Positions 19,161 to 47,620 are shown, counted from the stretch's first letter. The stretch: 64,000 bases of DNA from an uncultured Acidimicrobiaceae bacterium (GCA_963809715.1 CAWEKO010000002.1:189665-253664); one strand, 5' to 3'. Made by a program: numbers and translations. The notes: generated from the sequence alone by a model not told the origin.

Positions 19161-19583
19161 ATGACCGTTGGGCCAGTTGAATACATCGTGGTGGGGTTCC
19201 CCGGGAACAAGTTCACCGGTGAGATCGCCCCGGAGCTGATTGCGCTCGTCGAGTCTGGGACGGTGCGGGTACTCGACCTCATCTTCATCGGCAAGGACGA
19301 CGACGGAGATGTGCTCGCCTTCGAGATCGACGAGCTGGATGGAAGCGAAGCTTTCGACAACCTCGCCGGTGAGTTCGGCGGCCTCATCAGTCCGGAGGAC
19401 ATCGAATTCGTCGCCTCGAAACTCGAGCCCGGGAACTCGGCCGCGCTGCTGCTGTGGGAGGACCTCTGGGCGGCTCCCTTCGCCCAGGCAGTGAGGAATT
19501 CAGGTGGCGTGCTCCTCGAGGGTGCCCGCATCCCCCACGAACTGATCGAACCCGCAATCACCGCGCTGCCACAGGCAGTCTGA
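19161..19583 (+). CDS. DUF6325-like small soluble protein
   Basis: MTVGPVEYIVVGFPGNKFTGEIAPEL...VRVLDLIFIGKDDDGDV pattern. AGGAGAGGA RBS. Confidence 0.7.
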   Translation: MTVGPVEYIVVGFPGNKFTGEIAPELIALVESGTVRVLDLIFIGKDDDGDVLAFEIDELDGSEAFDNLAGEFGGLISPEDIEFVASKLEPGNSAALLLWEDLWAAPFAQAVRNSGGVLLEGARIPHELIEPAITALPQAV

Positions 19584-19607: not shown

Positions 19608-19883
19608 ATGATGATGAGACGACGACCGATTGCCAGAGCGGCCGTACGCACCACGGCCGTGGTCGGTACCGCCGCCGTGGTCGGGGGCCACATGGCCAAC
19701 AAGCAGGCCCAAGCCCAGGCCGCCCAGGACCCTGGTCCCGCACCAGCGCCGGCACCGGCGCCCGCGCCCGCGGCAGCCGCCCCCGACCCCGTCGCGCAGC
19801 TGACCCAGCTCGCGGCCCTGAAGGATTCGGGAGCCCTCACCGAAGCTGAGTTCGAGGCGGAGAAGGCGAAGCTCCTCGCGTAG
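19608..19883 (+). CDS. SHOCT domain protein with N-terminal TM segment and Pro/Ala linker
   Basis: C-terminal LAALKDSGALTEAEFEAEKAKLL SHOCT motif. AGAGGAG RBS. Confidence 0.75.
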   Translation: MMMRRRPIARAAVRTTAVVGTAAVVGGHMANKQAQAQAAQDPGPAPAPAPAPAPAAAAPDPVAQLTQLAALKDSGALTEAEFEAEKAKLLA

Positions 19884-19884: not shown

Positions 19885-19912
19885 AGATCGAGCGACGGTC
19901 GGTCGTCGATCT
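19885..19912. terminator. hairpin between convergent SHOCT and helicase genes
   Basis: AGATCGA(G)CGAC ... GTCG TCGATCT forms an 11-bp stem with one bulge and a 5-nt loop. It overlaps the helicase stop codon. Confidence 0.35.
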
Positions 19913-22787
19913 AAGCCCCGTCGACCCCACCCAAGACGGCGAGGAGTTCGTCCCCCCAGCGCTCCAAGCGGATGGGCCCGATGCCCCTGCAGCGGGCCAG
20001 TTCGGCGAGCGTCCCGGGCCGTATGGCGGCAATGCCCGCCAGTTCGCTGTCGTTCAGCACGACATAGGCCGGGAGGGACTCGCGCTTGGCCACACCCGAT
20101 CGCCACTCGCGCAGTGCACCCTCGTAGGGCTCAGCGGAGCTCGCAGCCTCGGCATCGCCCGGCGCCGCCAGCACCACCGTGGCTCCGCGCACCCGCACCT
20201 CTGTCCCGAAAGCGATCGTCAGTCGTGCCGCACCTACCTGGAGGACGGCCGCCGCCTCGGACAGGTCGATCACTGTTCCGCCATGACCTCCGTAGTCGAG
20301 CGCCAGCCCGACTTCCGCCGCCACCTGCGGCATCGACCGGGCCGGTCGCCTCGAGCTCCGCGCTTCGCGCTCGGGTCTGCGAGCCCCGCCGGCCACGCCG
20401 ATGGGTTGGCGAGGTCGGCTGCCGTCGAGCTCGGCCACGAAGGGCGACGGCGCCTCGGCATCGGCCAGCACCACCACCTGACGGATGGCTCGGGTCAATG
20501 CGACATGGAAGACCCGTCGTTCACCCTCTTCGTCGTCGCTCAAACGGTGGGGGAGCAGCCCCTGCGAGGCGCCGTAGATGATGACGTGTTCCCATTCCCG
20601 ACCCTTGATCCTGTGGATCGTCGAGAGCAGGACACCCGGCCCGCTGGAAGGTGGCCGCGCCAACAGGTCGCGCAGCCACGCCTCGAAGGAGGCGGCGTCG
20701 GGATGGAGGGCCGCCACGGACTCGAGAGCGACCAGGTCGTCGGTGTGGGTCGATCGATCGGCCTCCCGGCGCGACGAGTCCAAGACGTCCATCGTCTCGC
20801 CCAGGCCGACCTGCACCCGAATGGCCCGTACGACGGCTGCGGTCGAGCTCGAGGTGGTCGCGGCCACGGCGTCGAGGGCATCGGCGTACGCCGTCAACTT
20901 GGGTCCGTCCCGCCCGGAAAGGCGCTTGGCCAGGCGTCCGATGTCCGTGACCGACGTGGTTCCGCGTTCGGTGGCCATGGCCACGACGTTGGGGGCGATC
21001 CCCCGGGAAGGTCGTCGGATCGTCTGCTGGACGTCGTCTCGGCCCAACGCTCCCGGATTCAGACCCATACGGAGATAGGCGAGGGCGGTCCTGACGCCCG
21101 TTCGTTCCAGCGCCTTCCGATCCAGCGGAGCGTTGCAGGGGATTCCTGCTTCGACCAGCGCGACCTGGATCGGGAGCAACGACGAGTTCACCCGGGTCAG
21201 CACCGCGATCTCCTGCGGTGGCACTCCGCCCTTCAACCAGCTCGAGATCGCGCTCAGGGCGGTCTTCGGGAGCTCCTCGCTGCGTGCCCCCACCACGGCG
21301 ACGGGACCACGGCCCGCAAGAGGTGGGACGAAGTCCGGGAGGTCATCGCTGCGATCGGGTGGCGAGCCGGTCGTCTTGGCGATCCGTTCCACGTTGTAGG
21401 ACAGGACGGACGTCGCCGCCCCTACAACGGCTGGCGGACACCGGTAGTTGATTTCGAGCGCGTAATTGTGGGCACCGGGGAAGTAGTTCCCAAAGTTGAT
21501 CAGGTACTCGGGTGTTGCCCCGGTGTAGCCGTAGATGACCTGGTCGTCGTCGCCGACGCCGAAGCAGCTGTAGGCCGGGGCGCAGAGCAACCGGATCAGC
21601 AGCATGTGGGCGGCGTTGAGATCCTGGAACTCGTCGACCAGGAGATGTCGGCAGCGGCCCTGAGCGACGCTGCGGGCGTCGGGGTCTCGGAGAAGGATCT
21701 CGATGGACCGGTAGATCTGCTCGTCGAAGTCGACGGCGCCCGCCTCGGCGAGCGCTTCCCGGTAGGTCTCGAAGCCGTCGGCCAAGCCCTGGGCGTCCGG
21801 AATGAGCTCTTCGACTCTGCTCGGTGAGGTCAGCCCAAGACGGACGGCCGACAGCGCGTCGATGTACGGGAGGACGGTGTCGGTGTTGGCCTGGCGACGG
21901 ACGGGGAAGACCTGCTGGACGAGGTCGCGGACCGAGGGCTCCTCGAGGACGCGCAGTCGCCCCTGGCCACCAGAGGTGTCGCAGATCCACTGGCCCAGGC
22001 TGTTGAGCGTTCGGATATGGGGACGACGTGGTGTCGCCTGGCTGCCCGATCGCTCGATCAGCTCGTCGGCCGCGCGCCGGTTGTAGGCCAGCGCCGTCAC
22101 CGTGGTGGGCTCCACCCCGCGTCCTGCGATCAGGTGGCGGAGGCGCTCCGTCAGGACCCTGGTCTTGCCCGAACCCGCCGGGGCGATCACCCGGGCACCC
22201 CCCGTCGAATGGCTGACGGCGGCCAACTGGTCCGGGGCCAGATCGGCGTCCGGCGGGAGGTGGCCCACCGTCGAGAGCGACCCCGCCTCACTGTTCCAGC
22301 GGTGCACGACTCCGACCCCGCTCGAGAGAGGGGACGGCGCAAACGGCCCTCCGTCGACGTAGAGGGCAGTCCCGTCGGCCAACTCGATGTCGGCCGCACC
22401 GGTTTCCTGCACGCCCTGGTCGGCGAATCTTCTGGCCGCCTTGCGACCGTGCCACCAAATCGACTCTCCGCTCCGGGCGTCGTACGAGTTCGCCCAGACC
22501 AGGAAGTGGAGGCGTTCGCGGGAGAACTCGAAGTGCGGATCGAGGTCGTGGACCGGCCGCAGGCAGGTTTCCCGAACCTGCAATTCGGCGGAGTCGACCC
22601 CCATTTCCACCACGACTGGCTCGCGTGCGAACCATGCTCGTTGCAGCCTCGCCACGGCGGCGTTCGGGTCGGCGAGTGTCTCCGGGCGGATCGAGAGTCT
22701 GGGGGCCTGGATCCACGGCTCGGGAGGACTCATCCCGGGCGACACGACAACGCCACGGCCGAGTTCCGGCGGCCCGGGCATTGCCAT
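19911..22787 (-). CDS. UvrD/Rep-type superfamily 1 helicase with N-terminal extension and C-terminal HRDC domain
   Basis: Walker A in VIAPAGSGKTRVLTERL; LLVDEFQDLN (motif II); TIHRIKGREWEHVIIYG; HVALTRA. C-terminal LPAYVVLNDSELAGIAAIRPGTLAELARCRGIGPIRLERWG is HRDC-like. Confidence 0.85.
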   Translation of the reverse strand: MAMPGPPELGRGVVVSPGMSPPEPWIQAPRLSIRPETLADPNAAVARLQRAWFAREPVVVEMGVDSAELQVRETCLRPVHDLDPHFEFSRERLHFLVWANSYDARSGESIWWHGRKAARRFADQGVQETGAADIELADGTALYVDGGPFAPSPLSSGVGVVHRWNSEAGSLSTVGHLPPDADLAPDQLAAVSHSTGGARVIAPAGSGKTRVLTERLRHLIAGRGVEPTTVTALAYNRRAADELIERSGSQATPRRPHIRTLNSLGQWICDTSGGQGRLRVLEEPSVRDLVQQVFPVRRQANTDTVLPYIDALSAVRLGLTSPSRVEELIPDAQGLADGFETYREALAEAGAVDFDEQIYRSIEILLRDPDARSVAQGRCRHLLVDEFQDLNAAHMLLIRLLCAPAYSCFGVGDDDQVIYGYTGATPEYLINFGNYFPGAHNYALEINYRCPPAVVGAATSVLSYNVERIAKTTGSPPDRSDDLPDFVPPLAGRGPVAVVGARSEELPKTALSAISSWLKGGVPPQEIAVLTRVNSSLLPIQVALVEAGIPCNAPLDRKALERTGVRTALAYLRMGLNPGALGRDDVQQTIRRPSRGIAPNVVAMATERGTTSVTDIGRLAKRLSGRDGPKLTAYADALDAVAATTSSSTAAVVRAIRVQVGLGETMDVLDSSRREADRSTHTDDLVALESVAALHPDAASFEAWLRDLLARPPSSGPGVLLSTIHRIKGREWEHVIIYGASQGLLPHRLSDDEEGERRVFHVALTRAIRQVVVLADAEAPSPFVAELDGSRPRQPIGVAGGARRPEREARSSRRPARSMPQVAAEVGLALDYGGHGGTVIDLSEAAAVLQVGAARLTIAFGTEVRVRGATVVLAAPGDAEAASSAEPYEGALREWRSGVAKRESLPAYVVLNDSELAGIAAIRPGTLAELARCRGIGPIRLERWGDELLAVLGGVDGA

Positions 22788-22841
22788 CGGACCACGCTAC
22801 CGGGGGGTTGTTTCGCACGACGGCGCAGCCTCAACCGGAGC

Positions 22842-23162
22842 CTACGAAGAGCCGATCCATGGGGCCGGGGGGCATCGCCCCGGTTCAGCCGAGACGTGGC
22901 TTCGCGCCATCGGGTACGAGCCGTCCTGGAGCCGCACCGTTGCCCAAGGAATGCCCACCGCCTCGGGGCGGCCGGACCCTTTCCGGCGGGAAGCGTCGAC
23001 GTCGGGGTGCCGTGCAGGCACCGTCCCGAAGATGGGCGTCCTCGAGGTGTCGGCTGGGAACGAATGCCGAGGAGAGCACTTGGTCCGAGGGTCGAGCCGA
23101 CCCGAACGGGTGATTTCCATGTGGAACGCTCCAACAACCTCAATGGGCAGATACGCTGGCAA
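22842..23162 (-). CDS. hypothetical protein (uncertain; possibly 5'-truncated)
   Basis: High GC3 in this frame. The frame stays open upstream to about 23262 with no start codon before TTG 23162. No family recognised. Confidence 0.3.
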   Translation of the reverse strand: MPAYLPIEVVGAFHMEITRSGRLDPRTKCSPRHSFPADTSRTPIFGTVPARHPDVDASRRKGSGRPEAVGIPWATVRLQDGSYPMARSHVSAEPGRCPPAPWIGSS

Positions 23163-23350
23163 TTCGAGCGCTTCACCCAGAGAGGCACGACACCAATCGA
23201 CGAGGAGACTGGTGATCGCGTTCGGCGGGGAATCGAACTCCTCGACGGGTCGTGCGAGAGACGCTCTTGCGCCAACTACCTATGGCGCCGCGCCTATTGA
23301 AGCGACTGTCAGCGATCCGCGTCTGGACGACTGAATGAAGAGGTAGCAGT

Positions 23351-24304
23351 TTGACACCCTGGATCGAGTTAAGAGAAATCGCAGCAGAGTGTGGAACGCT
23401 GCTCCCAAAGCCGGGTTCGGGCGGCACGGCCGCCCGCTTTGCTGCGCTGGCCAATTGGGCCGCACAGGATCTCTCGCTTGCTCGATTGGCCGAGGGCCAC
23501 GTCGACGCGTTGGCCATCCTGGCGGAGGCAGGCCTCGTACCGGCCCCAGGCGCGACGTATGGGGTCTGGGCCGCCCGTCCAGGCGCCGACGGAACCACCG
23601 CTCGCCTGGCCGCAGACGGATGGCACTTCGCAGGAGAGAAGCCCTTCTGCTCAGGCAGTACTCGGATCGACCGGGCGCTCATAACGGCGGAATGCCCCGA
23701 TGGATACCGGCTTTTCGATATCTCGGTGGCTGAGAACGTCGTCAGGGTCCACCCCGGGTCGTGGCCTGCAGTCGGAATGGCGGATTCGCTGAGCGACACC
23801 CTTGATTTCGGTGGACCGCCTGTGCCGACGAGCCATGCCGTCGGGCCGCCCAACTTCTACCTCGATCGCCCCGGGTTCTGGTTCGGAGGAATTGGGGTCG
23901 CTGCCTGTTGGTACGGCGGAGCTCGTGGCCTCGTCGAGCACGTACTTCGAAGTGTCGGCCCGCATCCCTCGGAGCTCCTGATGGTCGAGCTCGGACATGG
24001 GGTCGCCCATATCGAGGTGATGCGTCGCGCCATCGAGCAGGCCGCGGAGGAGATCGATGCCGATCCCGACGATCGGACGGATACGGCCATGCGTCGAGCG
24101 CTCGTGGTCCGTCATCTCGTGCACTATGGATCGCAGCAGGTGCTGGTGCATGCCGCCGCCGCCGGGGGAGCCGGGCCTCTCTGTCATGACCCCCAACAGG
24201 CGCGGCGGTCGGCAGATCTCTACGTGTACTTGGCCCAGCATCACGATGTGAAGGATGCGAACGTCCTCGGCCATTTGGCATGTGAGGGGTGGCCGTGGAG
24301 CTAG
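23351..24304 (+). CDS. acyl-CoA dehydrogenase-fold protein, short and atypical
   Basis: FAGEKPFCSGS, WFGGIGVAACWYGGARG and a C-terminal helical domain. In a by-eye alignment the usual IYEGT catalytic-base position reads VYLAQ. GAAGAGG RBS before TTG 23351. Confidence 0.78.
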   Translation: MTPWIELREIAAECGTLLPKPGSGGTAARFAALANWAAQDLSLARLAEGHVDALAILAEAGLVPAPGATYGVWAARPGADGTTARLAADGWHFAGEKPFCSGSTRIDRALITAECPDGYRLFDISVAENVVRVHPGSWPAVGMADSLSDTLDFGGPPVPTSHAVGPPNFYLDRPGFWFGGIGVAACWYGGARGLVEHVLRSVGPHPSELLMVELGHGVAHIEVMRRAIEQAAEEIDADPDDRTDTAMRRALVVRHLVHYGSQQVLVHAAAAGGAGPLCHDPQQARRSADLYVYLAQHHDVKDANVLGHLACEGWPWS

Positions 24305-25047
24305 TCGTCGATGACCTGCACCCCGGGACGGACGAGCAAACGTGGCTCGGTGGAAGCCGTCTTGCCGGGCTGCCACCATTTCAGCAACGGCGGCCAGGAC
24401 GCCTCATTGTCGTGGCTCCGCACCCCGACGATGAGGTCCTCGCTGCTGGAGGGCTGCTCCAGCAGATGCAGCAGGCCGGCGTTGAAACTGTGCTCGTGGC
24501 CGTGACCGACGGTGAGGCATCGCACCCCGGGGTCCGGACTCAGGGTCACGATCTGGTGGCGAGACGCGTCGAAGAGACGCGGGTGGCCCTTCGTCGCTTG
24601 GGATGTGGTTCAGTGCGCGTGCAGCGTCTTTGCCTTGCCGATGGGTCCGTGGCCGAGCAGAGTCAGTACTTGACCGGCGTGCTGAGCCGCCTGCTGAGGC
24701 CCGACGACCTTTGTGTGGCTCCGTGGCGGTCGGATGGTCACCCGGATCACGATGCCGCCGGGCGCGCTGCGATCGCTGCTGCCCGCCTGACCGGGGCGCG
24801 GGTCCTCGAGTACTTGGTCTGGGCTTGGCACTGGGCTACACCAGACGATGCGTCTATACCCTGGCAACAATGTCGTCGTCTGGACCTGCAGCGACGGCAT
24901 ATCGCACGCAAGCGCTGGGCGACCTACGCCTTCACCTCGCAGATCAGGATTCTCGGCAATGACGACAGTGGGCTCCCAGTCTTGGCTGACTCCGTGCTGC
25001 GACGGTTCTGGCGACCCTTCGAAGTCTTCATCGAGACGGAATCGTGA
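24289..25047 (+). CDS. PIG-L / LmbE family N-acetylglucosaminyl deacetylase
   Basis: LIVVAPHPDDEVLAAGG and SDGHPDHDAAG zinc-ligand motifs. Overlaps the upstream gene by 16 nt. Confidence 0.85.
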   Translation: MAVELVVDDLHPGTDEQTWLGGSRLAGLPPFQQRRPGRLIVVAPHPDDEVLAAGGLLQQMQQAGVETVLVAVTDGEASHPGVRTQGHDLVARRVEETRVALRRLGCGSVRVQRLCLADGSVAEQSQYLTGVLSRLLRPDDLCVAPWRSDGHPDHDAAGRAAIAAARLTGARVLEYLVWAWHWATPDDASIPWQQCRRLDLQRRHIARKRWATYAFTSQIRILGNDDSGLPVLADSVLRRFWRPFEVFIETES

Positions 25048-25610
25048 CGTCGACGCACCGGTCGTATTTCGACGAGATGTACAGCGGTCAGGCCGACCCG
25101 TGGGATTTCGAAAATAGTACGTACGAACAGCGGAAATACGCCGTCACTGTGGCGAGCCTGCCCAGATCTCGCTATCGCTCGGCCTTCGAGCCGGGATGCT
25201 CGGTGGGAGTACTCACTGAACAGCTTGCTCCCCGCTGTGACCGGCTGCTCTCGAGCGACATCATTCCTTCCGCCCTGGAGCGAGCCGAGGGCCGGCTCCG
25301 CAGGAGGCCCAATGTCTGCATCGAGGAACGTTCCATCCCGGACCAGTGGCCACCTGGTCCGTTCGACCTGGTCGTACTCAGTGAAATCGCGTACTACTTC
25401 GACCGAACCGACCTCGGTTCCGTCATGGCCTGCGTCATTGACTCCACAGTTCCTCGAGCTCATGTCGTCGGCGTCCACTGGCTCGGCGAAACGGACTACC
25501 CCCTCAGTGGCGAGCTCACTCACCAGATCATCGCCGAGATTCCGGGTCTTGTCACCGTTGTCCACCACCGCGAAGAGCAGTTCGTGCTCGATGTGTGGGA
25601 GCGGCGGTGA
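25044..25610 (+). CDS. NodS-like class I SAM-dependent methyltransferase
   Basis: DPWDFENSTYEQRKY N-terminus and SAM motif I EPGCSVGVL. GTGA start/stop overlap at 25044-25047. Confidence 0.85.
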   Translation: MTSTHRSYFDEMYSGQADPWDFENSTYEQRKYAVTVASLPRSRYRSAFEPGCSVGVLTEQLAPRCDRLLSSDIIPSALERAEGRLRRRPNVCIEERSIPDQWPPGPFDLVVLSEIAYYFDRTDLGSVMACVIDSTVPRAHVVGVHWLGETDYPLSGELTHQIIAEIPGLVTVVHHREEQFVLDVWERR

Positions 25611-26338
25611 GCCGAAAGGATCTTCGACGAGCGATAGGCGCCGTGGGTGTCGTGTTGCCCGTTCACGACGAGGAGGAGTTGCTTCCCCGAGCTCTCGAAG
25701 CGCTCGAGGTCGCAGTCGACGCGCTTCTACCGGCCATCCCGTGCCGGGTCGCCATTGTCCTCGACGACTGTGGCGACGCCAGTTCTGCCATCGCGTGCTC
25801 CTGGCAACCCCAGTATGGCGCGCTGGTCATAGGTCGAAGGTTCAGAAGCGTTGGCGTGGCCCGGCACGCCGGAGCCCAGGCTCTCCTGTCCCTCTGGCCG
25901 GACATGGATCCTGCACAGGTTTGGCTGGCCACCACCGATGCCGATTCGCAGGTACCGCGGGACTGGCTGAAGGTCCAGGTCGACGCGTTCAGTTCCGGTG
26001 CGGATCTGTGGGCGGGGAGGGTCCGTGTTGCCGAGGAGAGCGCAACGGTACGTCGTTGGACGAAGCGCTATGCGTCCGAACTCGGGCCGATCCACGGCGC
26101 AAGCCTCGGCTTCAGCGCTGCCCTGTATGGGCAACTCGGGGGCTTTCGCAACCTGCGGAGTGGTGAAGATCGTGACCTCCATAATCGAGCTGCGGCGGCC
26201 GGCTTCCGTATCAAGCACGACCTCAGAGCAGCTGTGACGACAAGTTCTCGAAGGAAGGGGCGGGCCCCCGGAGGTTTCGCGAGCGTATTGGACACCGTGG
26301 CACAGGAGCAGCTCGAGGTAAGTTTCCAACCGAACTGA
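25607..26338 (+). CDS. glycosyltransferase family 2 (soluble, GT-A fold)
   Basis: VGVVLPVHDEEELL, LDDCGD and TTDADSQVPRDW (DxD). GTG 25607 gives a GTGA overlap with the upstream stop. GTG 25595 is an alternative start. Confidence 0.83.
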   Translation: MSRKDLRRAIGAVGVVLPVHDEEELLPRALEALEVAVDALLPAIPCRVAIVLDDCGDASSAIACSWQPQYGALVIGRRFRSVGVARHAGAQALLSLWPDMDPAQVWLATTDADSQVPRDWLKVQVDAFSSGADLWAGRVRVAEESATVRRWTKRYASELGPIHGASLGFSAALYGQLGGFRNLRSGEDRDLHNRAAAAGFRIKHDLRAAVTTSSRRKGRAPGGFASVLDTVAQEQLEVSFQPN

Positions 26339-28061: not shown

Positions 28062-28910
28062 TCAGTCCATCGATGGGCGATCAGGTACTCGGGCGAGCAA
28101 ATCGCTGGCCCGTTCAATCCCCGCAGAGATGTACGGGCCGGCCGTGTCGAGTGCTTCCTCGAGCAACTCCCCGGCTCGCTCCAGCCCCGCTGAGATGTAC
28201 GGGCCGGCAGTTTCGAGTGCTCCTTCTGCTACGTCGAGGGCGCTCTCATTCGCTTGACGTAGGTATGGCGCAGCAAGCACTACCCCGGCCTTGGCCGCGT
28301 TGATCGCCTTCTCATTCGCCTCTCGTGCCGCGTGGAATGCGGCTGCGTTGGCTCGCCGCGTCGCCACCTTGGCCCTCCTTCTCGCACGGCGTCCGGCCTT
28401 TCGACCTACTTCGGCCGCTTTCGACGTCGTTTGATGCGCGTGGGCAACCGAGTTGGCATGTCCTTCCGTCACCGAGCTCGCCACCTGGTGGACCCGACGC
28501 CGAGTCCTCCAGGCCACTGAAGGAGCACCATCCGTATCGACGGCCGCAAAAATGAGCCCACCGAGGAGCCCCAAATTCTTGAGGAGCTGCATCCTTTGCT
28601 GGGCCCGCCTTTCGTCATCTGGTTCTTCCCAGAAGCGATGGCCGGTGTAGGTGGTCGGCACAATGGTCCCCATCAAGGCGAGGGCTGCCAGGCGTGGGAA
28701 CTTCCCGAGGGCCAACAGAACACCGCCACCGACCTGAACCGCCCCATTCAATCTGACCACCGTCGAGGCGTTCACCCCACCTTCCGAGAGGGTCGACGGC
28801 TGAGCCTCAACCTCTTCGGTGTCTCCGCCAGGATCTCGGATTGCACCCCAACCTTCAGCAATGAAGATCGACGCCAAGAGCGGTCGGGCAATTCTCCGAG
28901 AAAGAGTCAC
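28062..28910 (-). CDS. DoxX family membrane protein with long basic/helical C-terminal tail
   Basis: RPLLASIFIAEGW and GKFPRLAALALMGTIVPTT DoxX pattern. Codon third positions are noticeably A/T-richer than elsewhere in the window. Confidence 0.72.
   Translation of the reverse strand: MTLSRRIARPLLASIFIAEGWGAIRDPGGDTEEVEAQPSTLSEGGVNASTVVRLNGAVQVGGGVLLALGKFPRLAALALMGTIVPTTYTGHRFWEEPDDERRAQQRMQLLKNLGLLGGLIFAAVDTDGAPSVAWRTRRRVHQVASSVTEGHANSVAHAHQTTSKAAEVGRKAGRRARRRAKVATRRANAAAFHAAREANEKAINAAKAGVVLAAPYLRQANESALDVAEGALETAGPYISAGLERAGELLEEALDTAGPYISAGIERASDLLARVPDRPSMD
28089..28220 (-). repeat. 66-bp tandem duplication inside the DoxX tail
   Basis: Encodes ALETAGPYISAGLERAGELLEE followed by ALDTAGPYISAGIERASDLLAR. 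GTACGGGCC recurs exactly 66 nt apart (28131 and 28197). Confidence 0.7.
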
Positions 28911-29627: not shown

Positions 29628-29993
29628 ATGTCCGAGATTGGCGCATTTCTTTCGAGTGAGGAGCACGGCGCACGTGCATTGCTGCGTCAGGCCAAGCTGG
29701 CCGATGCCGCTCCCATGCGAAGCGTGCTCCTTTCCGGTCATTGCCATCCGCGGATCGACGCCCAGGACGAGAGTCCTTGTGTCTTGGGCGTGATCGGGGC
29801 CATTTCCGCCGCCAGCTCGCGTCGAGTGACAACAGAGGTCACCTGCCCCACGGTCCGAATTCACCCGGCCATGGCGACTGCGAAGTATCAGGGGGCCGGT
29901 TTCGACGAGATCTACGTCAACCAGTTCGGGCCTGAACAGGAGGGGTTCTTCTCGTTCTATGGGCGGGAGATCACCCCCCGCCTCGGGATCTAA
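29628..29993 (+). pseudogene. luciferase-like (F420-dependent LLM) oxidoreductase remnant with large internal deletion
   Basis: MSEIGAFLSSEEHGARALL...GHCHPR...VTCPTVRIHPAMA is the LLM N-terminus. It is joined directly to the LLM C-terminus GAGFDEIYVNQFGPEQEGFFSFYGREITPRLG. The product is 121 aa against the usual roughly 320-330 aa. Confidence 0.6.
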
Positions 29994-30448
29994 TGCGCTC
30001 TGAGGCCCAACGCGACAATCGCAATCTGGCCGACCTGCTTCAAGAATTGCGGGTGGCCGGGCTGGGTGTGCAGATGCTCTTTGGCTTCTTGCTTGCCTTG
30101 CCGTTCACCAACCGTTTTGCTCAGCTCAACGAGGCCCAAAGGGTGCTTTACCGGGTGAGTGTGCTGAGTGCCGCGGCAGCGACCGCGCTTCTCATAAGTC
30201 CAGTGGCCTATCACCGTTGGGTGTTCCGGCGACATCAGAAGTCGAAGTTGCTCCGCTTGGCGAACGTCGAAGCTCTGCTCGGGCTGGTCATGGTGGCGGC
30301 GTCGTTGGGATGTGCCATCGTGCTCATCTTCAGCTTCGTCGGTAGCGGGTGGGTGTTCTCCATCCTCGTTGCAATCGTGATCGCGAGCTTGGGGTTTCTC
30401 TGGTTCGCCCTACCTCTCTTTGAGAGGTGGACTTCGGACCGGTCGTAA
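29993..30448 (+). CDS. DUF6328-like membrane protein
   Basis: RNLADLLQELRVAGLGVQMLFGFLLALPFTNRF pattern with 3-4 TM helices. The ATG overlaps the upstream TAA (TAATG). Confidence 0.7.
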   Translation: MRSEAQRDNRNLADLLQELRVAGLGVQMLFGFLLALPFTNRFAQLNEAQRVLYRVSVLSAAAATALLISPVAYHRWVFRRHQKSKLLRLANVEALLGLVMVAASLGCAIVLIFSFVGSGWVFSILVAIVIASLGFLWFALPLFERWTSDRS

Positions 30449-30501: not shown

Positions 30502-31227
30502 TCAGAATTCAGCGCGTAGACGCCGCAAGCTCTGTGCGAGAAGACGGCTCACCTGCATCTGGCTCACGCCGATTCTTCTCGCAATCGCCAATTGGCTCAT
30601 TTCGTCGACAAACCGCATACGAAGCAGATCCTGTTCGAACGAGGAGAGCCCCTGTAGAGCCTCTGCCAGAACAGTTCGGGTGTCGACGCGATCCATCTCG
30701 TCCTCGTCTTGGTCCACCGGCGGCGTCAACTCGTCACTGTCGCCGTCGAGCGAATCGGACAGATACACACGTCCGGCTTCCATAGCCTCAAGCACCGAAG
30801 CGTGCGATTCTCCGAGTGATTCGGCGATCTCCGCAACGGTTGGGCTCCGTCCAAGTTCGTGTGTCAGCTGTTCGACCTGATGTCCAATCTCGAGATAGAG
30901 CTCTTGAATTCGGCGCGGAGCGCGTACTGACCAGCCAGTGTCTCGAAAGTGACGTTTGAGCTCGCCAACCATGTATGGAACAGCAAAGGATGTGAATCTG
31001 ACGCCTCGATCTGGATCAAATCGCTGGACTGCCTTCACCAATGCCATACAGGTGACCTGATAGAGATCGTCGTAAGGCTCACCCCGATGAGCGAAGCGGC
31101 GGGCGAGATGGCGAGCGAGGCCCAGGTAACTCTCGACGATGGCGTCCCGCACCTCGACGCTGTGCGTCCGGGTCAGTTCTCGGAACCGCTCCAGTTCTTC
31201 GTCGGAGTTAACGAGTGGCTGGTCCAC
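30502..31227 (-). CDS. SigB/SigF/SigG-type (group 3) RNA polymerase sigma factor
   Basis: Region 2 YDDLYQVTCMALVKAVQRFDPDRGVRFTSFAVPYMVGELKRHFRD; region 4 HTH SQLAIARRIGVSQMQVSRLL. Confidence 0.9.
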   Translation of the reverse strand: MDQPLVNSDEELERFRELTRTHSVEVRDAIVESYLGLARHLARRFAHRGEPYDDLYQVTCMALVKAVQRFDPDRGVRFTSFAVPYMVGELKRHFRDTGWSVRAPRRIQELYLEIGHQVEQLTHELGRSPTVAEIAESLGESHASVLEAMEAGRVYLSDSLDGDSDELTPPVDQDEDEMDRVDTRTVLAEALQGLSSFEQDLLRMRFVDEMSQLAIARRIGVSQMQVSRLLAQSLRRLRAEF

Positions 31228-35883: not shown

Positions 35884-36178
35884 CACGACGCTCCACCCCG
35901 GCAGTCCGGGCTCCATGACCGCGGCGCTGGCCCGGCGCGGAACCCTGGTCGAGGCCAAGTGGAGACCCCAGGATCCGGGCCGGCGGCGGCGCGGGGCCGC
36001 AAATCCAACTCACCTGCAACCGGAATGCGACTGAGCGCAGCAAAGACCTGGTCAGCGTGAAATGAGGACAGGAATTTCAGCCCGAAAAAGGCCAAATGGC
36101 TCGGAAGACGAACCAGGCACATTGATCAAGAATTGCCCCGGTGATACCTTGCCCCGAACGATCGGGGGGAGGGGCGCT

Positions 36179-37828
36179 ATGGCAATGCTGCGCGGCACAA
36201 CTCGATCTTCACACCGTGGACGCGGGGTCCGGTGGGGTGCGACCCTGACCGGTGCGGTCGCACTGGTTTTTCCGCTCTTGGTCCTGCAGGGGTCGTCTCC
36301 GGCCGGGGCTGGGTCCGCCGGCGACACCACCGCCGAGTACATCGTCTCGTCGTCGTCGGGGATGTTGTCCTCGGACTCGCTCTCATCGGTGACGAGTGCC
36401 GTGGCCGGTGTCGACCCGACGGTCAACTCCGATCTTTCGCCCGTGGACGCCGCCACGGCCCAACTCGACCCGTCTCAGGTGACGTCGGTCGCCGCCGTGC
36501 CCGACGTGGTCGTCACCCCGAACGTTCCGGTGAAGGTCCAGGACACCGTCGGCGATCCGGGACGGGCGCCGGCGGCGGTCTTCCCCCAGCAGACCGGGGC
36601 GTCGCAGATCTGGGCCCAGGGCGACACCGGGCAGGGCGTCAACGTGGCCGTGCTCGACACGGGCATCTCGCCGTTGCCGGACTTCGCCGGGCGCATGGTC
36701 GACGGCGTCGACCTGACCGGCCACTCCAACCCCTGGAAGGATCAATACGGTCACGGCACGTTCGTGGCGGGCCTCATCGCCGGTGACGGGGCGTCCTCGA
36801 ACGGTCAGTACATGGGAGAAGCCCCCGGAGCCGGCCTCGTCTCGGTCAAAGTGGCGGGGGCGACCGGGAAGACCAACCTCCTCTCGGTGATCGAGGGTGT
36901 CGGGTGGACCATCGCCCATGCGGCGAAGGACAACATCGGGGTCCTCAACATGTCGTTGGGCTACCTCCCGCTCACCTCGACCGTCCTCGATCCGCTCGAC
37001 CAGGCGGTCGAGAAGGCCTGGGAGGCCGGCATCACGGTCGTGGTGTCCGCCGGCAACTCGGGCCCGGGCAACGGGACGATCCTCGCCCCGGGTGACGACC
37101 CCTTGGTCATCACCGCGGGGGCCGTCGACGACGGGGGGCAGGCGACCTCGGCCGACGACACCATGACGACCTTCAGCAGCGCCGGCCCGACCAACCCCGA
37201 CGGCTGGTTCAAGCCCGACCTGGTGACGTCGGGCCGATCGGTCGTGAGCCTGCGCGACCCGGGTTCCACCATCGACGTGCAGAACCCGTCCGCCAGCGTC
37301 GGCAGTGCGAACTTCGTCGGCTCGGGCACCTCCTTCAGCTCGGCCATCACGGCCGGCGCCGCCGCCCTGCTGCTCTCGGCCGACCCCGGCTACGACCCCG
37401 ACACCGTGAAGGGCACGCTGCTCGGCACGACCGATCCGGGCCCGGTAGGCAACCCGTTCGTGGACGGGCACGGCGACCTCGACGTGGCCAGCGCGGTCGC
37501 GTCCCCGGCCATGACCTTGTCCCAGTCGCCGCCGACCCAGGCCACCGCCATGGGCGGCGACGTCTCGCTCGCCGTGAGCGGGGAGTCCTCATCGTGGAAC
37601 CCGGCCAACTGGACCGGGTCGGCCTGGAACGGTTCGGCCTGGAACGGGTCCGCCTGGAACGGATCGGCCTGGAACGGATCCGCCTGGAACGGATCGGCCT
37701 GGAACGGATCGGCCTGGAACGGGTCGACCTGGAGCGGGTCGGCCTGGAACGGTTCCGCCTGGAACGGGTCCGCCTGGAACGGGTCCGCCTGGAACGGGTC
37801 GGCCTGGAACGGGTCCGCCTGGAACTGA
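36179..37828 (+). CDS. secreted S8 (subtilisin-like) serine peptidase with C-terminal (GSAWN)14 tail
   Basis: Signal peptide after ATG 36179 (GGGGGAGGGG RBS). Catalytic triad contexts VAVLDTGI, HGTFVAG and GTSFSSAITAG. Confidence 0.9.
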   Translation: MAMLRGTTRSSHRGRGVRWGATLTGAVALVFPLLVLQGSSPAGAGSAGDTTAEYIVSSSSGMLSSDSLSSVTSAVAGVDPTVNSDLSPVDAATAQLDPSQVTSVAAVPDVVVTPNVPVKVQDTVGDPGRAPAAVFPQQTGASQIWAQGDTGQGVNVAVLDTGISPLPDFAGRMVDGVDLTGHSNPWKDQYGHGTFVAGLIAGDGASSNGQYMGEAPGAGLVSVKVAGATGKTNLLSVIEGVGWTIAHAAKDNIGVLNMSLGYLPLTSTVLDPLDQAVEKAWEAGITVVVSAGNSGPGNGTILAPGDDPLVITAGAVDDGGQATSADDTMTTFSSAGPTNPDGWFKPDLVTSGRSVVSLRDPGSTIDVQNPSASVGSANFVGSGTSFSSAITAGAAALLLSADPGYDPDTVKGTLLGTTDPGPVGNPFVDGHGDLDVASAVASPAMTLSQSPPTQATAMGGDVSLAVSGESSSWNPANWTGSAWNGSAWNGSAWNGSAWNGSAWNGSAWNGSAWNGSTWSGSAWNGSAWNGSAWNGSAWNGSAWNGSAWN

Positions 37829-37840
37829 TCGGTCTGGAAC
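37616..37840 (+). repeat. 15-bp tandem repeat, 15 units (14 coding plus 1 after the stop)
   Basis: Units GG(N)TC(N)GCCTGGAAC encode GSAWN, with one GSTWS variant. Units differ mainly at synonymous positions. TGA at 37826 replaces a GGA Gly codon, and the next unit, TGA TCG GTC TGG AAC, still follows the periodicity. Confidence 0.95.
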
Positions 37841-37952
37841 GGATCGCGCAGGCCTCGATCAGGACACCCGCCGACAGGATTCGCACGATCGCCACGGAGA
37901 CGGCAGGCACCATGGACACCGAAGTCTCTTGAAACTTCCGAAGACATCGCGG

Positions 37953-40678
37953 ATGGTCATCGCGGCCTGGGCCGTGGCCGGGCTGGTCGCGTTCGGCATC
38001 GGGCTGGACCGGACCCTGGCCGGCGGTTGGCCCGGGTCCACGGCGATCTGGTTCAGTGCGGTCTTCGGCGTGCTCATGGCAGTCAGCTGGATCTGGCCCA
38101 TCACGCTCTACATCGGCGGCGAGTCGGACGCCATCGACTTCGACGAGGGGTTCCTCGTCCTGTTCCTCCTCCTCGTCCCGGCGTCCATGTCCGTGCTGGT
38201 GTTCGCGGCGGTGACCGTCGCGGCCCAGGCCATCAAGCGACGGCCCTTTGCCAAGTCGATCTTCAACGTGGGCCAGGTCGTGACCTCGGCCGGCGTGGGT
38301 GCCGTGGCCTTCGTGCTCCTCCAAGGATCCACCGACACGGTCGGCTACGCCAAGGTCGGTGCGGCCATCGTCGGCGCGCTCTGCTACTTCGTCGTGAACA
38401 CCGGGTCCATGGTGACGATCATGGTCACGCTGGGGACACCGTGGCGCAAGGTGGTGTTCGCCGGCATCGAGGGCAAACTCCTCATCGCCGCGGGCGGCAT
38501 CTGTATCGCCATCCCGGCCGGATTGCTGCTGGCCCAGCATCCCCGCTACCTGCTCGTCGCCCTGCTGCCGGCCATCATCTTGCGCTTCGTGGGCGCGGGC
38601 CACTTCTACGCCCGGCACGACCGGGCCCGCCTGCACGGGCTCTTCGAGGCCACGCTCGATGTCAACCGCAGCATGGGGATCGACGAGACCAAGGCGGCCG
38701 TGCTCAACGCGGCGTCCAGCCTGCTCCGCTCGCCCGACGCCTCGCTGGGTGTCACCGAGCCCGGCGATGACGAGCTGGCCGCCCCGATGGCCGTGGGGGA
38801 CGAGACCCTGTGGCTCCGCGTGGCCGGGCGCAGCCAGACCGAGCCCTTCGACGACGCCGACCAGACCCTGGTCGAGGCGCTGGCCTCGGTGGGTTCCGTC
38901 GCACTGGCCAACACGAGCCTCTACGCCGAGGTGCAGCAGCAGAAGGACAAGCTCTCGATCATCACGAGCAGCCTCGGCGAGGGCGTGTGCGCCATCAGCG
39001 AGACCGGAGAGATCAGCTTCTTGAACCCGGCCGGTGCCAGCATGCTGGGCTGGTACACCGTCGGCGCCGGTGAGGACGACGGCCCGATTCTGCCGGCCCA
39101 CGAGACGCCGCGCTTCCTCCTCGACCCGGCCATGCGGGCCATCGCGCTGCGGCGCAACGTCACCAGTTACGACACCCGATTCGACCGGCCCGACGGCTCG
39201 CACTTCCCCGTGACGATGACGGCCTCGCCCGTCGTCGGCGGCTCGGCGCCGTCGGGGGCGGTGATCGTGTTCCGCGACACCTCGGAGCGCAAGGCCTTCG
39301 AGGAACAGCTGGCCCGCCACGCCTTCCAGGACGCGCTGACCGGCCTGGCCAACCGGCGCCTCCTGCTCGACCACCTCGACCACGCGCTGCTTGCAGGCGG
39401 ACCGCAACGGCAGCCAGGTGGGGGTGCTGTTCTGCGACATCGACCGCTTCAAGGTGGTGAACGACAACCTGGGCCACCAGGTGGGCGACGAGCTCCTGCG
39501 GGTGATCGGCGAGCGCCTGCGTCGCGCCGTGCGGCCCGGCGACACGCTCTCGCGCTTCGGCGGGGACGAGTTCGTCATCCTGCTCGAGGGCATCATGTCG
39601 CCCGACGACGCCAGCGACGTGGCCAACTCGGTCCTCGGCGCACTGCACGACCCGATCGTGCTCAGCGCCGGCCACGAGGTCGTGACGACGATGAGCATCG
39701 GCATCGCGCTGAGCGAGTACGGCAAGTCGCGCGACGACCTGCTCCACGACGCGGACGTGGCCATGTATCGAGCCAAGGACCGGGGTCGGGGCGGACAGGT
39801 CGCCATGTTCGACGTGGCCCGCATGGGCGGCCGTTCGGCCGGCCGCCTCGATCTGGACACCGCGTTGCACCACGTGGTCGAGCGGGGCGAGGTCGAGATC
39901 CACTACCAGCCGCTGGTCTCGCTCGACGGACCGGCGCATCCTCGGGGCCGAGGCGTTGGTGCGCTGGAACCACCCCGACCACGGGATGCTCCTGCCCTCC
40001 CAGTTCATTCAGCTGGCCGAGGACAACGGCACCATCCTGCCCATCGGACATCTCGTCCTGGAGCAGGCCTGCCGCCAGATGAGGGAATGGTCGCAGCGGT
40101 TCGGGACCCGACTGCAGATCGGGGTCAACCTCTCCGCCCGCCAGTTCCAGCAGGTGAGCTTGGCCGACGACATCGCGGAGGTGCTGCGGACCACCGGGAT
40201 CGAGCCTTCACAGCTGTGCCTCGAGATCACCGAGAGTCTGGCCATGGACGACGTCGAGCTCACGACCAGCATTCTGAGCCGGCTGCACACCGTCGGGGTC
40301 CGCCTGGCCATCGACGACTTCGGCACGGGCCACTCCTCGCTCGGCTACCTGGCCCGGTTCCCGATCGACGTCGTCAAGATCGACCAGAGCTTCGTACGCG
40401 ACATCGACAAGGACCCGGTGAAGTCGGCCATCGTCTCCGCCGTGGTGGCGCTGTCCCAGGCCATCGACTCGACCACGGTGGTCGAAGGGGTGGAGACGGC
40501 GGCCCAACTCGAGGAGCTGCGGAAACTGGGATGCGACGTGGCCCAGGGCTTCTACTTCGCACGCCCGGTGTCGGCCGCCGCGTTCGAGCGGCTGCTGACG
40601 GCGAGTGCGAGCCCGAGCACCACGGCGGGCCCACCCGACCTGCGCGTCGTCCGGGGCGGGGAGGCCGCCGCCGGGTAG
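37953..40678 (+). pseudogene. membrane sensor / GAF-like / PAS / GGDEF / EAL c-di-GMP protein split by two +1 frameshifts
   Basis: Three consecutive frames carry the parts. The first has TM, PAS and ...AFQDALTGLANRRLLLDHLDHALL. The second has QADRNGSQVGVLFCDIDRFKVVND...RFGGDEFVIL...EIHYQPLVSLDG. The third has RRILGAEALVRWNHP...EITESL...DDFGTGHSSLGYL...KIDQSF...VEGVET. Shifts lie near 39388 and 39927. Confidence 0.8.
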
Positions 40679-40724
40679 GCGGCCAGGCGGATCGCCTCAC
40701 CACCCCGCACTACGCTTTGGCGCG

Positions 40725-41171
40725 ATGGTGGACGGCAGCGCAACGACCCGAACGGACTTCGGCACGGCCGCCGGCGACCGTCCGCTGCGCGTCCTCATGG
40801 CCAAGGTCGGTCTGGACGGACACGACCGCGGGCTGCGCGTCGTGGCCCGCATCCTGCGCGACGCCGGTTGCGAGGTGGTCTATGCCGGCCTGCGCCAGTC
40901 ACCCGAGAGCATCGCGGCCATGACGGTGCAAGAGGACGTCGACGTGGTGGGCGTGTCGATGCACAACGGGGCCCACCTCACGCTGGCGCCCGCCGTCGTC
41001 GGAGCCCTGCGCCAGGCCGGGCTGGAGACGCCGGTGGTGGTCGGCGGGATCGTGCCGCCGGGCGACGTGGCGGTCCTGCTCGCCGACGGGGTCGCGGCGG
41101 TGCTCGGGCCGGGCGCCTCGAACGAAGAAGTGGTGGCCACCGTACGGGCCGCAGCGTTCCCCGCGAACTAG
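40725..41171 (+). CDS. stand-alone cobalamin (B12)-binding domain protein (methylmalonyl-CoA mutase C-terminal domain-like)
   Basis: RVLMAKVGLDGHDRGLRVVARILRDAGCEVVYAGL (DxHxxG motif) and VDVVGVSMHNGAH. Confidence 0.85.
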   Translation: MVDGSATTRTDFGTAAGDRPLRVLMAKVGLDGHDRGLRVVARILRDAGCEVVYAGLRQSPESIAAMTVQEDVDVVGVSMHNGAHLTLAPAVVGALRQAGLETPVVVGGIVPPGDVAVLLADGVAAVLGPGASNEEVVATVRAAAFPAN

Positions 41172-42955: not shown

Positions 42956-42972
42956 CGCCCGGTCCACCCCGT

Positions 42973-44733: not shown

Positions 44734-44853
44734 CGTCGCACCGGCCCGAAGGCCGGGTCGCTCGCGCCGACCGGTGTCGGGACATGCGGCGGCGAGGTGG
44801 CGAGACGTTTGATAACGCCAAACTACTCGCCGCGGGGCCGCCCCGGCTCTCCG

Positions 44854-46488: not shown

Positions 46489-46489
46489 C

Positions 46490-47575
46490 TCAGAGGACGA
46501 CCACGGAGCGCAGCACCTCGCCCCGCTCCATGCGGCTGAAGGCCCCCTCGACGCCGTCGATGCCGATCGTCTCGGTGACGAACCGGTCGAGGTCGAGGCG
46601 ACCCTCGAGATAGAGGTCGACGAGCATCGGGAAGTCCCGTGACGGCAGGCAGTCGCCGTACCAGCTCGGCTTGAGCTGACCGCCGCGCCCGAAGAATTCG
46701 ATCATGGGCAGGTCGATCTTCATGTCGGGCGTCGGCACACCGACCTGGACCAGGGTGCCGGCCAGGTCACGGGCGAAGAAGGCCTGTTCCATCACCTTCG
46801 GATTGCCCACCGCCTCGATGCACACGTCGGCGCCGTTGCCGCCGGTGACCGAACGGATGGCCTCGACCGGGTCCGACGCGCCGGCGTCGACCGTGTGGGT
46901 GGCGCCGAACTCGCGGGCCAGCTCGAGCTTCTTCGGGTCGAGATCGACGGCGATGATGACGGCCGCCCCGGCCAACGTCGCCCCGGCGATGGCGGCACAG
47001 CCGACGCCGCCGCAGCCGAAGACGGCGACCGAATCGCCCAGTCCGACGTTCCCGGTGAACATTGCCGCGCCGAGACCGGCCATCACGCCGCACCCGAGCA
47101 GGCCCGCCGCCTCGGGCTTGGCCGCCGGGTTCACCTTGGTGCACTGCCCGGCGGCGACCAGCGTCTTGTCGGCGAAGGCACCGATGCCCAGGGCCGGGGA
47201 GAGGGGCGTCCCGTCGGCCAGCGTCATCTTCTGGGTCGCGTTGTGCGTGGAGAAGCAGTACCAGGGTCGGCCGCGCCGGCAGGCCCGGCACTCGCCGCAC
47301 ACGGCGCGCCAGTTGAGCACGACGAAGTCGCCGGGCTGCAGGTCACCCGAGTCGGGTCCGACCGACTCGACGACACCCGCGGCCTCGTGGCCGAGGAGGA
47401 AGGGAAAGTCGTCGTTGATACCGCCCTCGCGGTAGTGCAGGTCGGTGTGGCAGACGCCGCAGGCCTGGACCGCGACGACGGCCTCCCCGGGCCCGGGGTC
47501 CGGTACGACGATCGTCTCGAGGCTGACCGGCGCGCCCTTGGACTTGGCCACCACCCCGCGCACTTCCTGTCCCAT
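46490..47575 (-). CDS. class III zinc alcohol dehydrogenase (S-(hydroxymethyl)mycothiol/glutathione dehydrogenase-like)
   Basis: [42 protein letters not shown] and [14 protein letters not shown]. Confidence 0.88.
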
Positions 47576-47620
47576 GCAGGCTCCTCCTGGTCGACGAGTC
47601 CACATGATGCCCGATCGGAC

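Follow-up and report, generated by a model that had tools for sequence, protein, structure and literature searches.

A widespread four-gene operon, described from an uncultured Acidimicrobiaceae bacterium, with a putative role in stress-associated synthesis of an amino-sugar glycoside

A stretch of 64,000 nucleotides from an uncultured Acidimicrobiaceae bacterium (GCA_963809715.1, CAWEKO010000002.1:189665-253664; the whole stretch is referred to as the window) was analysed around a cluster of four genes at positions 23351-26338. The genes encode a flavoenzyme-like protein with the fold of the acyl-CoA dehydrogenases (ACADs), a zinc de-N-acetylase of the PIG-L/LmbE family, a NodS-family class I S-adenosylmethionine (SAM) methyltransferase, and a small soluble glycosyltransferase of family GT2 (GT-A fold). 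The four-gene set is a widespread conserved module carried on chromosomes and plasmids of several phyla, and the window holds an ordinary member of this conserved operon, which has been seen before without an assigned function. Its link to stress genes and to promoters of stress sigma factors is the strongest functional clue, and one that a preliminary description of the cluster, made from the DNA alone, had missed. The operon probably belongs to the general-stress or stationary-phase gene sets of its carriers and, by analogy with characterised members of the same families, would most likely encode a cytoplasmic pathway to a modified amino-sugar glycoside, a reading to which we give an even chance.

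The four co-directional open reading frames (ORFs) of the + strand spanned 23351-26338, and every junction between them was an overlap. The flavoenzyme-like protein (23351-24304, +; 317 aa, TTG start) was recognised on the basis of AlphaFold and Foldseek, and AAGAGG was present 8 nt 5' of its start. The deacetylase gene (24289-25047, +; 252 aa; PF02585 at 3.1e-25) starts with GTG at 24289, while the first gene ends with TAG at 24302-24304, giving a 16-nt overlap. The methyltransferase gene (25044-25610, +; 188 aa, GTG start; PF05401 at 2.2e-15) shares GTGA at 25044-25047 with the deacetylase stop, and the glycosyltransferase gene (25607-26338, +; 243 aa, GTG start; PF00535 at 5.4e-10) shares GTGA at 25607-25610 with the methyltransferase stop. 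The ORF listing gave the glycosyltransferase as 25595-26338 (GTG), with an alternative GTG start at 25607; the latter is backed by a database protein, P0270, that is 100% identical to the 243-aa product. The junction sequences thus confirmed the overlapping ORFs and junction positions of the preliminary description, and the motifs it had named (HPDDE, HPDH, DPWDF, EPGCSVG, DDCGD, TDAD, and VYLAQ) were all present in the translated ORFs. It had also called the products soluble, and no membrane-span-like segment was found in any of the four proteins by the Kyte-Doolittle 19-residue mean, the maximum of which (1.69) lay on a beta-strand of the GT-A core. The GC content of the operon (0.64-0.67) was the same as that of its flanks, and a horizontal-transfer signal was rejected on that ground.

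The synteny scan, with one genome per species and a neighbourhood limit of 6 kb, covered 72 loci, mostly from Acidimicrobiales metagenome-assembled genomes, together with Streptomyces, Georgenia, Sciscionella, and one Chloroflexia genome; the closest relative was 93% identical. Neighbour genes in the related loci were identified by tblastn with known neighbour proteins and from annotated records. Gene direction was shared in all 72 loci. The order ACAD-like, PIG-L, methyltransferase, glycosyltransferase was found in 43 loci, and the order glycosyltransferase, ACAD-like, PIG-L, methyltransferase in 11. PIG-L was absent within the limit in 10 loci ordered glycosyltransferase, ACAD-like, methyltransferase and in 6 ordered ACAD-like, methyltransferase, glycosyltransferase, while 2 loci had an incomplete arrangement. 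The flavoenzyme, methyltransferase, and glycosyltransferase genes occurred together in 70 of the 72 loci, with the deacetylase gene as well in 56, and recurrence in 70 species-level loci and across phyla places the arrangement beyond chance. The flanks of the window operon, a UvrD/HRDC helicase gene and a TAP-like hydrolase gene, were common only to the two closest relatives; the quartet is thus conserved while its flanks change. The neighbourhood check proposed in the preliminary description therefore showed a syntenic quartet, and its view of a translationally coupled unit was upheld. In the related loci, coding and shadow frames were similar in codon-position GC.

A collection of annotated plasmids contributed 63 further records. 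The full set was found in Acinetobacter, Cupriavidus, Streptomyces rimosus, Comamonas, Legionella, Pandoraea, Novosphingobium, Paracoccus, Bradyrhizobium, and Sulfitobacter. In Cupriavidus the PIG-L gene stood beside a catalase gene, 4 kb from the rest of the set. Three of the four genes were visible in Kitasatospora in the PLSDB gene table, which is itself incomplete. Deinococcus carried the ACAD-like and PIG-L genes, with the methyltransferase in addition in D. radiodurans and no separately annotated glycosyltransferase. The module spans Acidimicrobiales, Streptomyces, Chloroflexia, Deinococcus, and alpha-, beta-, and gamma-proteobacteria. The set is restricted neither to Actinomycetota nor to this genome; the module is cross-phylum and also plasmid-borne, and it is transmitted and mobilised as one unit.

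One of the closest known systems lies in Acinetobacter. Genes for a glycosyltransferase, a methyltransferase, a protein like LmbE, and an acyl-CoA dehydrogenase are listed as neighbours of blsA in A. baumannii and A. nosocomialis (PMC6240043, PMC9020721). Inspection of an A. baumannii chromosome showed a DUF2171 gene on the opposite strand, followed by the ACAD-like, PIG-L, NodS-like methyltransferase, GT2, BOF, and BLUF genes, these six in a common direction. At this locus (L076 8379-13165), the BLUF gene was 0.8 kb downstream of the quartet, past the BOF gene and co-directional with it. The Acinetobacter cluster (ACICU_02432-02435; blsA of ATCC 17978; AnBLUF65 of A. nosocomialis) has the same four families, order, and overlaps as the window, with 33-35% identity over more than 90% of the length between the ACAD-like proteins; it differs in being flanked by BOF and BlsA on the 3' side and DUF2171 on the 5' side, none of which is present in the window. 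On a Bradyrhizobium plasmid (L078 1-20), a BLUF gene was about 5.7 kb upstream of the quartet. Linkage to BLUF as a general feature was rejected, being confined to Acinetobacter and this one plasmid (0 of 72 genome loci). In Table 2 of PMC5660220, ACICU_02432-02435 (glycosyltransferase, methyltransferase, LmbE, and ACAD-related) form operon 'e', and the quartet was down 31-62-fold in colistin-dependent mutants of two A. baumannii lineages; otsA/otsB, a catalase gene, and the adjacent hypothetical genes dropped alongside it.

Stress genes recurred next to the quartet. A KatE-type catalase gene was present within 6 kb in 9 Acidimicrobiales loci and in metagenome locus L091, and catalase genes were also near the quartet in Acinetobacter, Cupriavidus, Sulfitobacter, and Novosphingobium. 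A ferritin-like gene was near the quartet in about 12 loci, Ku or LigD were neighbours in several loci, CsbD and DUF883 were neighbours in Pandoraea, and S. rimosus had a SpoIIE-type phosphatase and HAMP signalling proteins nearby. On plasmids of two Comamonas species (L082 5571-10539 and L086 5571-10567), otsA and otsB enclosed the quartet, apparently as one operon, and the gene ends overlapped. A Legionella lytica plasmid (L083 965-7819) showed the order otsB, GH65 (phosphorylase-type), PIG-L, methyltransferase, glycosyltransferase, ACAD-like, and on an Acinetobacter johnsonii plasmid otsA/otsB were 1.6 kb from the quartet. The placement in Comamonas and Legionella hints at an acceptor from trehalose metabolism. 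At the promoter level, the motif G[TG]TT-N14-18-GGG[TC]A, which we take to be of the SigB/SigF type, preceded the first gene of the cluster in 19 of 70 loci, compared with 3 on the reverse strand and about 1.3-1.6 (maximum 6) in shuffles and random windows. Paracoccus had an exact EcfG-type GGAAC-N17-CGTT at -55.

The second, third, and fourth proteins of the operon were assigned to their families above the Pfam gathering scores, as the preliminary description had proposed. The deacetylase scored 89.6 bits against a cut-off of 28.2 for PF02585 (model positions 1-128 of 129), with HPDDE at residues 45-49 and HPDH at 151-154. Its closest solved relatives were TT1542, diacetylchitobiose deacetylases, and BshB, while it stayed below the equivalog cut-offs for MshB (TIGR03445, 21.2 against 224.35 bits), BshB1 (TIGR04001, 54.9 against 182.5), and BshB2 (TIGR04000, 33.4 against 195.25). 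The methyltransferase scored 57.5 bits for PF05401 (cut-off 24) and 70.4 bits for the NodS equivalog NF041650 (cut-off 300). Its matches in the PDB were 4isc (2e-38), an entry that carries only the name 'Methyltransferase', and the NodS structure 3ofj (2e-14); NCBI annotation of homologues includes 'nodulation' terms of the Gene Ontology (GO). The glycosyltransferase scored 39.9 bits for PF00535 (cut-off 23.3) and 31 bits for the MftF equivalog (cut-off 280). Its AlphaFold model was of the GT-A type, with a predicted local distance difference test score (pLDDT) of 81.5 and a Foldseek probability of 1.0 to many GT2 structures, and some of its homologues are named 'cell wall biosynthesis' or 'PNAG synthase-like' in their sources. 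The metal ligands, SAM motif, and DxD motif were conserved over 61-81 syntenic homologues: HPDDE in 61/61 and H..DH in 65/65 for the deacetylase, DPW in 79/79 and ExGCSxG in about 79/81 for the methyltransferase, and DxCxD together with TDAD (74-75/75) for the glycosyltransferase. The four enzymes of the operon are apparently active, judging by the conservation of their catalytic motifs.

The first protein had no match in Pfam or NCBIfam, and its best single-sequence match in the PDB was TdsC, a weak one (E=0.005). The AlphaFold model, with 23 homologues in the alignment, had a pLDDT of 83.5 and a predicted template modelling score (pTM) of 0.84. Foldseek matched this model to Rv3094c, DszC, short-chain acyl-CoA dehydrogenase (SCAD), and KijD3 at template modelling (TM) scores of 0.75-0.81, and the top rows mixed monooxygenases (Rv3094c, DszC/TdsC, 5z8t, XiaF, KijD3, and MsuC) with true dehydrogenases. 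A cross-phylum profile of the flavoenzyme family matched 5z8t/5gj7 at 4e-16, isobutyryl-CoA dehydrogenase (IBD) at 6e-15, DszC at 4e-14, and the amino-sugar nitrososynthases at 1e-10 to 3e-7; IBD and SCAD scored almost as high as 5z8t/5gj7. The flavoenzyme appears no more distant from flavin monooxygenases of the ACAD fold (DszC/TdsC, 5z8t) than from true dehydrogenases. The ACAD fold named in the preliminary description was retained. Distant relatives from Bradyrhizobium and Deinococcus do match Pfam Acyl-CoA_dh_N and Acyl-CoA_dh_1. When 1.84 billion cluster representatives (clusters at 50% identity) were searched exhaustively with phmmer, only 1,656 proved related at E<=1e-3, with 921 at 1e-10 and 327 at 1e-30; the flavoenzyme therefore forms a discrete family well apart from mainstream ACADs.

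Residues E48, H50, W73, K97, S101, G102, W138, R254, and Q296 of the flavoenzyme were invariant across phyla. The flavin-contact motif G-x-K-x-[FW]-x-S-G was kept, reading GEKPFCSGS in the window with invariant G95, K97, S101, and G102. The catalytic bases were mapped from the conserved R286..D289, aligned with the 'RD' of IBD, using residue numbers of medium-chain acyl-CoA dehydrogenase (MCAD) and isovaleryl-CoA dehydrogenase (IVD) that we assume to be the usual ones. The position of MCAD Glu376 was H297, 8 residues past Asp289, and was H/Y/S/T across homologues, and the helix-G base position (IVD Glu254) was D172, with D/E/A/G/R across homologues. Alignments to true ACADs stopped just short of the motif D-L-x-V-Y-L-[AR]-Q-x-H, whereas the alignment to 5z8t continued through it. 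The flavoenzyme family therefore seems, from these alignments, to have no conserved acidic residue at either canonical base position. The preliminary description had read VYLAQ in place of the usual IYEGT; the loss of the catalytic Glu was right, while the pairing was about three residues off, the R..D anchor placing the position at H297. The window protein has neither the catalytic Glu nor the Pfam ACAD domains of a functional acyl-CoA dehydrogenase, and at the level of the fold it has the three domains (alpha, beta, alpha) and the flavin-contact motif of the ACAD superfamily.

Several partners and fusions of the flavoenzyme were seen in individual lineages. One small Acidimicrobiales clade alone (L091 12340-12837, L016, L017) had a PF01613 flavin reductase gene 1.3 kb downstream of the quartet, and the flavin reductase was rejected as a general component of the module. 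The same clade had patatin, acyltransferase, and catalase genes upstream. In Deinococcus, the ACAD-like domain formed the C-terminal half of a 750-780-aa protein (L084 5609-7852, L077 4543-6882), followed by PIG-L. The N-terminal half in D. proteolyticus showed weak similarity to a GH1-like TIM barrel (VNEISF and LTETG motifs; E about 1e-4, no Pfam match), a fusion that lends weak support to a glycoside substrate. P0083 (L089 1026-2564), a 512-aa STAS-ACAD fusion on a 4.6-kb metagenome contig with a weak STAS_2 match, was rejected as most likely an over-extended start. A STAS (anti-sigma antagonist) gene directly upstream at L089 would fit control of the SigB/F type.

The proposed pathway builds on what is established for these families. 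PIG-L enzymes deacetylate conjugates of N-acetylglucosamine (GlcNAc-X), and those characterised work in the cytoplasm on small GlcNAc conjugates; NodS N-methylates deacetylated glucosamine (GlcN), and ACAD-fold nitrososynthases oxidise amino-sugar nitrogen. In a first step, the GT2 enzyme would move an N-acetylhexosamine, most likely GlcNAc from UDP-GlcNAc, onto a small acceptor. The PIG-L enzyme would then strip the N-acetyl group and expose the amine, which the NodS-like enzyme would methylate. The ACAD-fold flavoprotein would oxidise the product or the acceptor, acting as an oxidase or oxygenase and not as an acyl-CoA alpha,beta-dehydrogenase, because the flavin motif is kept and the dehydrogenase base is absent. 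The outcome would be a small molecule of protective or redox-active character, produced together with trehalose and catalase. Donor sugar, acceptor, step order, flavoenzyme reaction, product class, and physiological role are all inferred. A bolder version is tentative, and we think it rather doubtful: the operon may make an undescribed small molecule common to many phyla, for example a glucosaminyl glycoside that carries an N-methyl group, is possibly N-hydroxylated or oxidised in another way, and perhaps derives from an intermediate of the trehalose pathway. It would serve as a general stress protectant or redox buffer, next to trehalose and catalase, in carriers from A. baumannii and Legionella to Streptomyces, Deinococcus, and soil Acidimicrobiales, and the ACAD-fold protein would be a flavoenzyme of a new functional class, one that oxidises amino sugars.

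A number of results weigh against the proposed stress-linked glycoside pathway. PIG-L was missing within 6 kb in 16 of the 72 loci (L005, L011, L012, L016, L020, L024-L027, L030-L032, L036, L041, L045, and L056), and deacetylation may be optional or PIG-L may be encoded elsewhere, as in Cupriavidus. The SigB/F-type motif was absent upstream of the window operon and of its two closest relatives, and the expression evidence is that from A. baumannii. Common descent of the Acidimicrobiales loci inflates the enrichment of stress genes in the neighbourhoods, and placement in trehalose operons could reflect co-regulation only. Flavin binding by the first protein is deduced from motifs and fold, and Foldseek with the glycosyltransferase model gave only generic GT-A matches (TM 0.55-0.69), from which no donor or acceptor was assignable. 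The open-access literature and bioRxiv gave no functional study of the module and no product, substrate, or phenotype for its members, the genes appearing there only as blsA neighbours or in an expression table. On the separate question of a known system, the set reached no curated family or equivalog in NCBIfam. PADLOC gave only a weak generic methyltransferase match (mad2, 1.6e-6) and none for the other three proteins, and an anti-phage defence system was rejected on this result. The view that the cluster matches no characterised pathway was accordingly sustained, with no NCBIfam equivalog, no PADLOC model, and no functional study in the open-access literature.

Among the alternatives, the one that survives best, and which we nevertheless consider unlikely, is that the module turns trehalose, trehalose-6-phosphate, or glucose-6-phosphate into an amino or N-methylamino trehalose analogue (trehalosamine-like) serving as a second stress solute. 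The quartet's nested position within the otsA/otsB pair of two Comamonas species, the otsB-GH65-PIG-L-methyltransferase-glycosyltransferase-ACAD order of L. lytica, the nearby otsA/otsB of the A. johnsonii plasmid, and the joint drop of the quartet and otsA/otsB in A. baumannii all point this way. However, none of the 72 loci, most of them actinobacterial, had otsA or otsB within 6 kb, nor had the window, and as OtsAB are ordinary members of stress regulons, co-regulation alone would explain the linkage; the GT2 model also gives no pointer to a glucose-6-phosphate or trehalose acceptor.

Tailoring of the envelope or of an exopolysaccharide, with a GlcNAc residue in lipooligosaccharide, capsule, or a polymer like poly-N-acetylglucosamine (PNAG) being deacetylated and N-methylated, is distinctly unlikely. 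Membrane spans and signal peptides are absent from all four proteins, the glycosyltransferase (240 aa) has no membrane domain, and the conserved set includes no flippase, polymerase, polyprenyl-phosphate transferase, or exporter, although the source names of some glycosyltransferase homologues ('cell wall biosynthesis', 'PNAG synthase-like'), the three extra glycosyltransferase genes directly upstream in Novosphingobium, and the collapse of expression in colistin-dependent A. baumannii mutants would suit such a role. Characterised PIG-L enzymes are cytoplasmic and act on small GlcNAc conjugates, as is established, and the module lies among cytoplasmic stress genes and not in envelope loci.

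A low-molecular-weight thiol, mycothiol- or bacillithiol-like or an N-methylated variant, would have its GlcN-X core built by the glycosyltransferase and PIG-L, while its cysteine would come from an enzyme whose gene lies elsewhere. In favour are BshB1, BshB2, and MshB as the top NCBIfam matches of the deacetylase, the presence of BshB among its solved relatives, and neighbouring and co-regulated genes tied to oxidative stress, notably catalase. Its chance is nonetheless slim: the BshB1, BshB2, and MshB scores were far under the equivalog cut-offs, the glycosyltransferase is GT2/GT-A whereas MshA and BshA are GT4, an annotated cysteine ligase was found in none of the neighbourhoods examined, and a thiol pathway leaves no role for the ACAD-fold protein, the best-conserved member of the set.

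Synthesis of a Nod-factor-like chito-oligosaccharide signal is hardly credible despite the NodS family of the methyltransferase and the 'nodulation' GO terms on homologues, given a NodS equivalog score of 70 against 300 bits, a deacetylase of a different superfamily, the lack of NodA, NodB (CE4), and a membrane-embedded processive NodC, and carriers (Deinococcus, Acinetobacter, and Acidimicrobiales) that do not nodulate. Mere co-location of the four genes with no common pathway, for which the 16 of 72 loci missing PIG-L and the varying position of the glycosyltransferase gene might speak, is just as improbable in view of co-direction in 72/72 loci, the core trio in 70/72, recurrent stop/start overlaps amid differing flanks, conservation across phyla and on mobile plasmids, and co-expression of the four genes in A. 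baumannii.

If the proposed stress-linked pathway to an amino-sugar glycoside holds, it would be a fourth output of the stress regulon in many bacteria, besides trehalose, catalase, and DNA-end repair. Among the carriers are A. baumannii, a major hospital pathogen noted for persisting on dry surfaces, Deinococcus with its resistance to radiation, and uncultured Actinomycetota that are abundant in soil. A discrete ACAD-fold family (about 900-1,600 clusters at 50% identity) and the structural-genomics methyltransferase 4isc would also gain a function, and what adjoins the blue-light sensor gene blsA would be explained. The module is compact, with four soluble enzymes encoded in about 3 kb, it is present in genetically tractable hosts, and the A. 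baumannii copy is already known as highly expressed and strongly regulated.

The surroundings of the operon in the window were also characterised. The helicase gene and the operon are separated by a divergent intergenic region of unusual length (22788-23350, 563 bp), a candidate promoter or leader. It was conserved in blocks with the two closest relatives (e.g. ACCCGAACGGGTGATTT and TTCCGGCGGGAAGCG), with indels that were not multiples of three, and could be a long leader or regulatory region. The promoter and terminator scan found no sigma-70-like promoter or intrinsic terminator around the operon, and Rfam gave no match in the upstream region even at E<=1. No Rfam family, including tRNA and riboswitches, reached its gathering score anywhere in the 64 kb. 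A sigma factor gene of the SigB/SigF/SigG family (TIGR02980; 243.7 bits against a cut-off of 234.35) was present 4 kb downstream of the operon at 30502-31227 (-), in keeping with the stress link, with small stress-type proteins nearby (DUF6328, a DoxX protein whose C-terminal extension is long, DUF6325, and a SHOCT-domain protein); the ORFs listed with this neighbourhood were 29993-30448 (+), 28062-28910 (-), 19161-19583 (+), and 19608-19883 (+).

Upstream of the intergenic region, the helicase encoded at 19911-22787 (-) has 958 aa, is UvrD/PcrA-like, and bears an HRDC domain at its C terminus. Some 180 residues at the N terminus and the segment 775-890 had no family match, and because all helicase equivalog scores were far under their cut-offs, the protein is an unassigned subtype of superfamily 1 (SF1). 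Further along the window, GC content was 0.69-0.73 at 36001-48000 compared with 0.61-0.65 over most of the first 36 kb, and a strong positive AT skew was seen at 42-48 kb; the segment 36001-48000 may be of different origin or gene content.

Compared with known systems, the operon appears to resemble the early steps of mycothiol and bacillithiol synthesis and NodS-type tailoring, yet by the scores and gene content found it falls outside all of them. With mycothiol and bacillithiol (MshA/MshB, BshA/BshB), it shares the logic of cytoplasmic GlcNAc transfer onto a small acceptor, followed by a PIG-L-family de-N-acetylase, as well as the link to oxidative stress. It differs in lacking a cysteine ligase or acetyltransferase, in having an extra N-methyltransferase and a flavoenzyme, in a glycosyltransferase that is GT2/GT-A and not GT4, and in not reaching the MshB/BshB equivalog cut-offs. 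The likeness to Nod-factor tailoring (NodB, NodS) is that the amine of glucosamine is freed by deacetylation and then N-methylated by a NodS-family enzyme, while the deacetylase is PIG-L and not CE4 NodB, the methyltransferase is by its equivalog score no NodS orthologue, and there is neither a NodA acyltransferase nor a processive NodC. No nodA, CE4 nodB, or membrane-bound NodC was found in any neighbourhood examined. The echo of Nod-factor and mycothiol assembly heard in the preliminary description was thus real for the enzyme families and absent for the pathways, with scores below the cut-offs, a small soluble GT2, and no NodA, NodB, or cysteine ligase.

The ACAD-fold oxygenases DszC/TdsC, the 'ACAD type 2' monooxygenases of the 5z8t type, and KijD3/ORF36/DnmZ share with the flavoenzyme the three-domain fold and the absence of the canonical catalytic Glu, and a His of TdsC aligns with a His in the flavoenzyme N-terminal domain. 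Against this, the family is no closer to these oxygenases than to the true ACADs IBD and SCAD, its N-terminal domain is about 60 residues shorter, it has invariants of its own (E48, H50, Q296, and H298), and a flavin reductase partner is nearby in one small clade only. The nitrososynthases KijD3, ORF36, and DnmZ set a precedent for amino sugars as substrates of an ACAD-fold enzyme. With OtsA/OtsB, the operon has in common co-regulation, sometimes a shared operon, and small soluble sugar enzymes; the families are unrelated (OtsA is GT20 and OtsB a HAD phosphatase), and the quartet has amine chemistry and a redox step besides.

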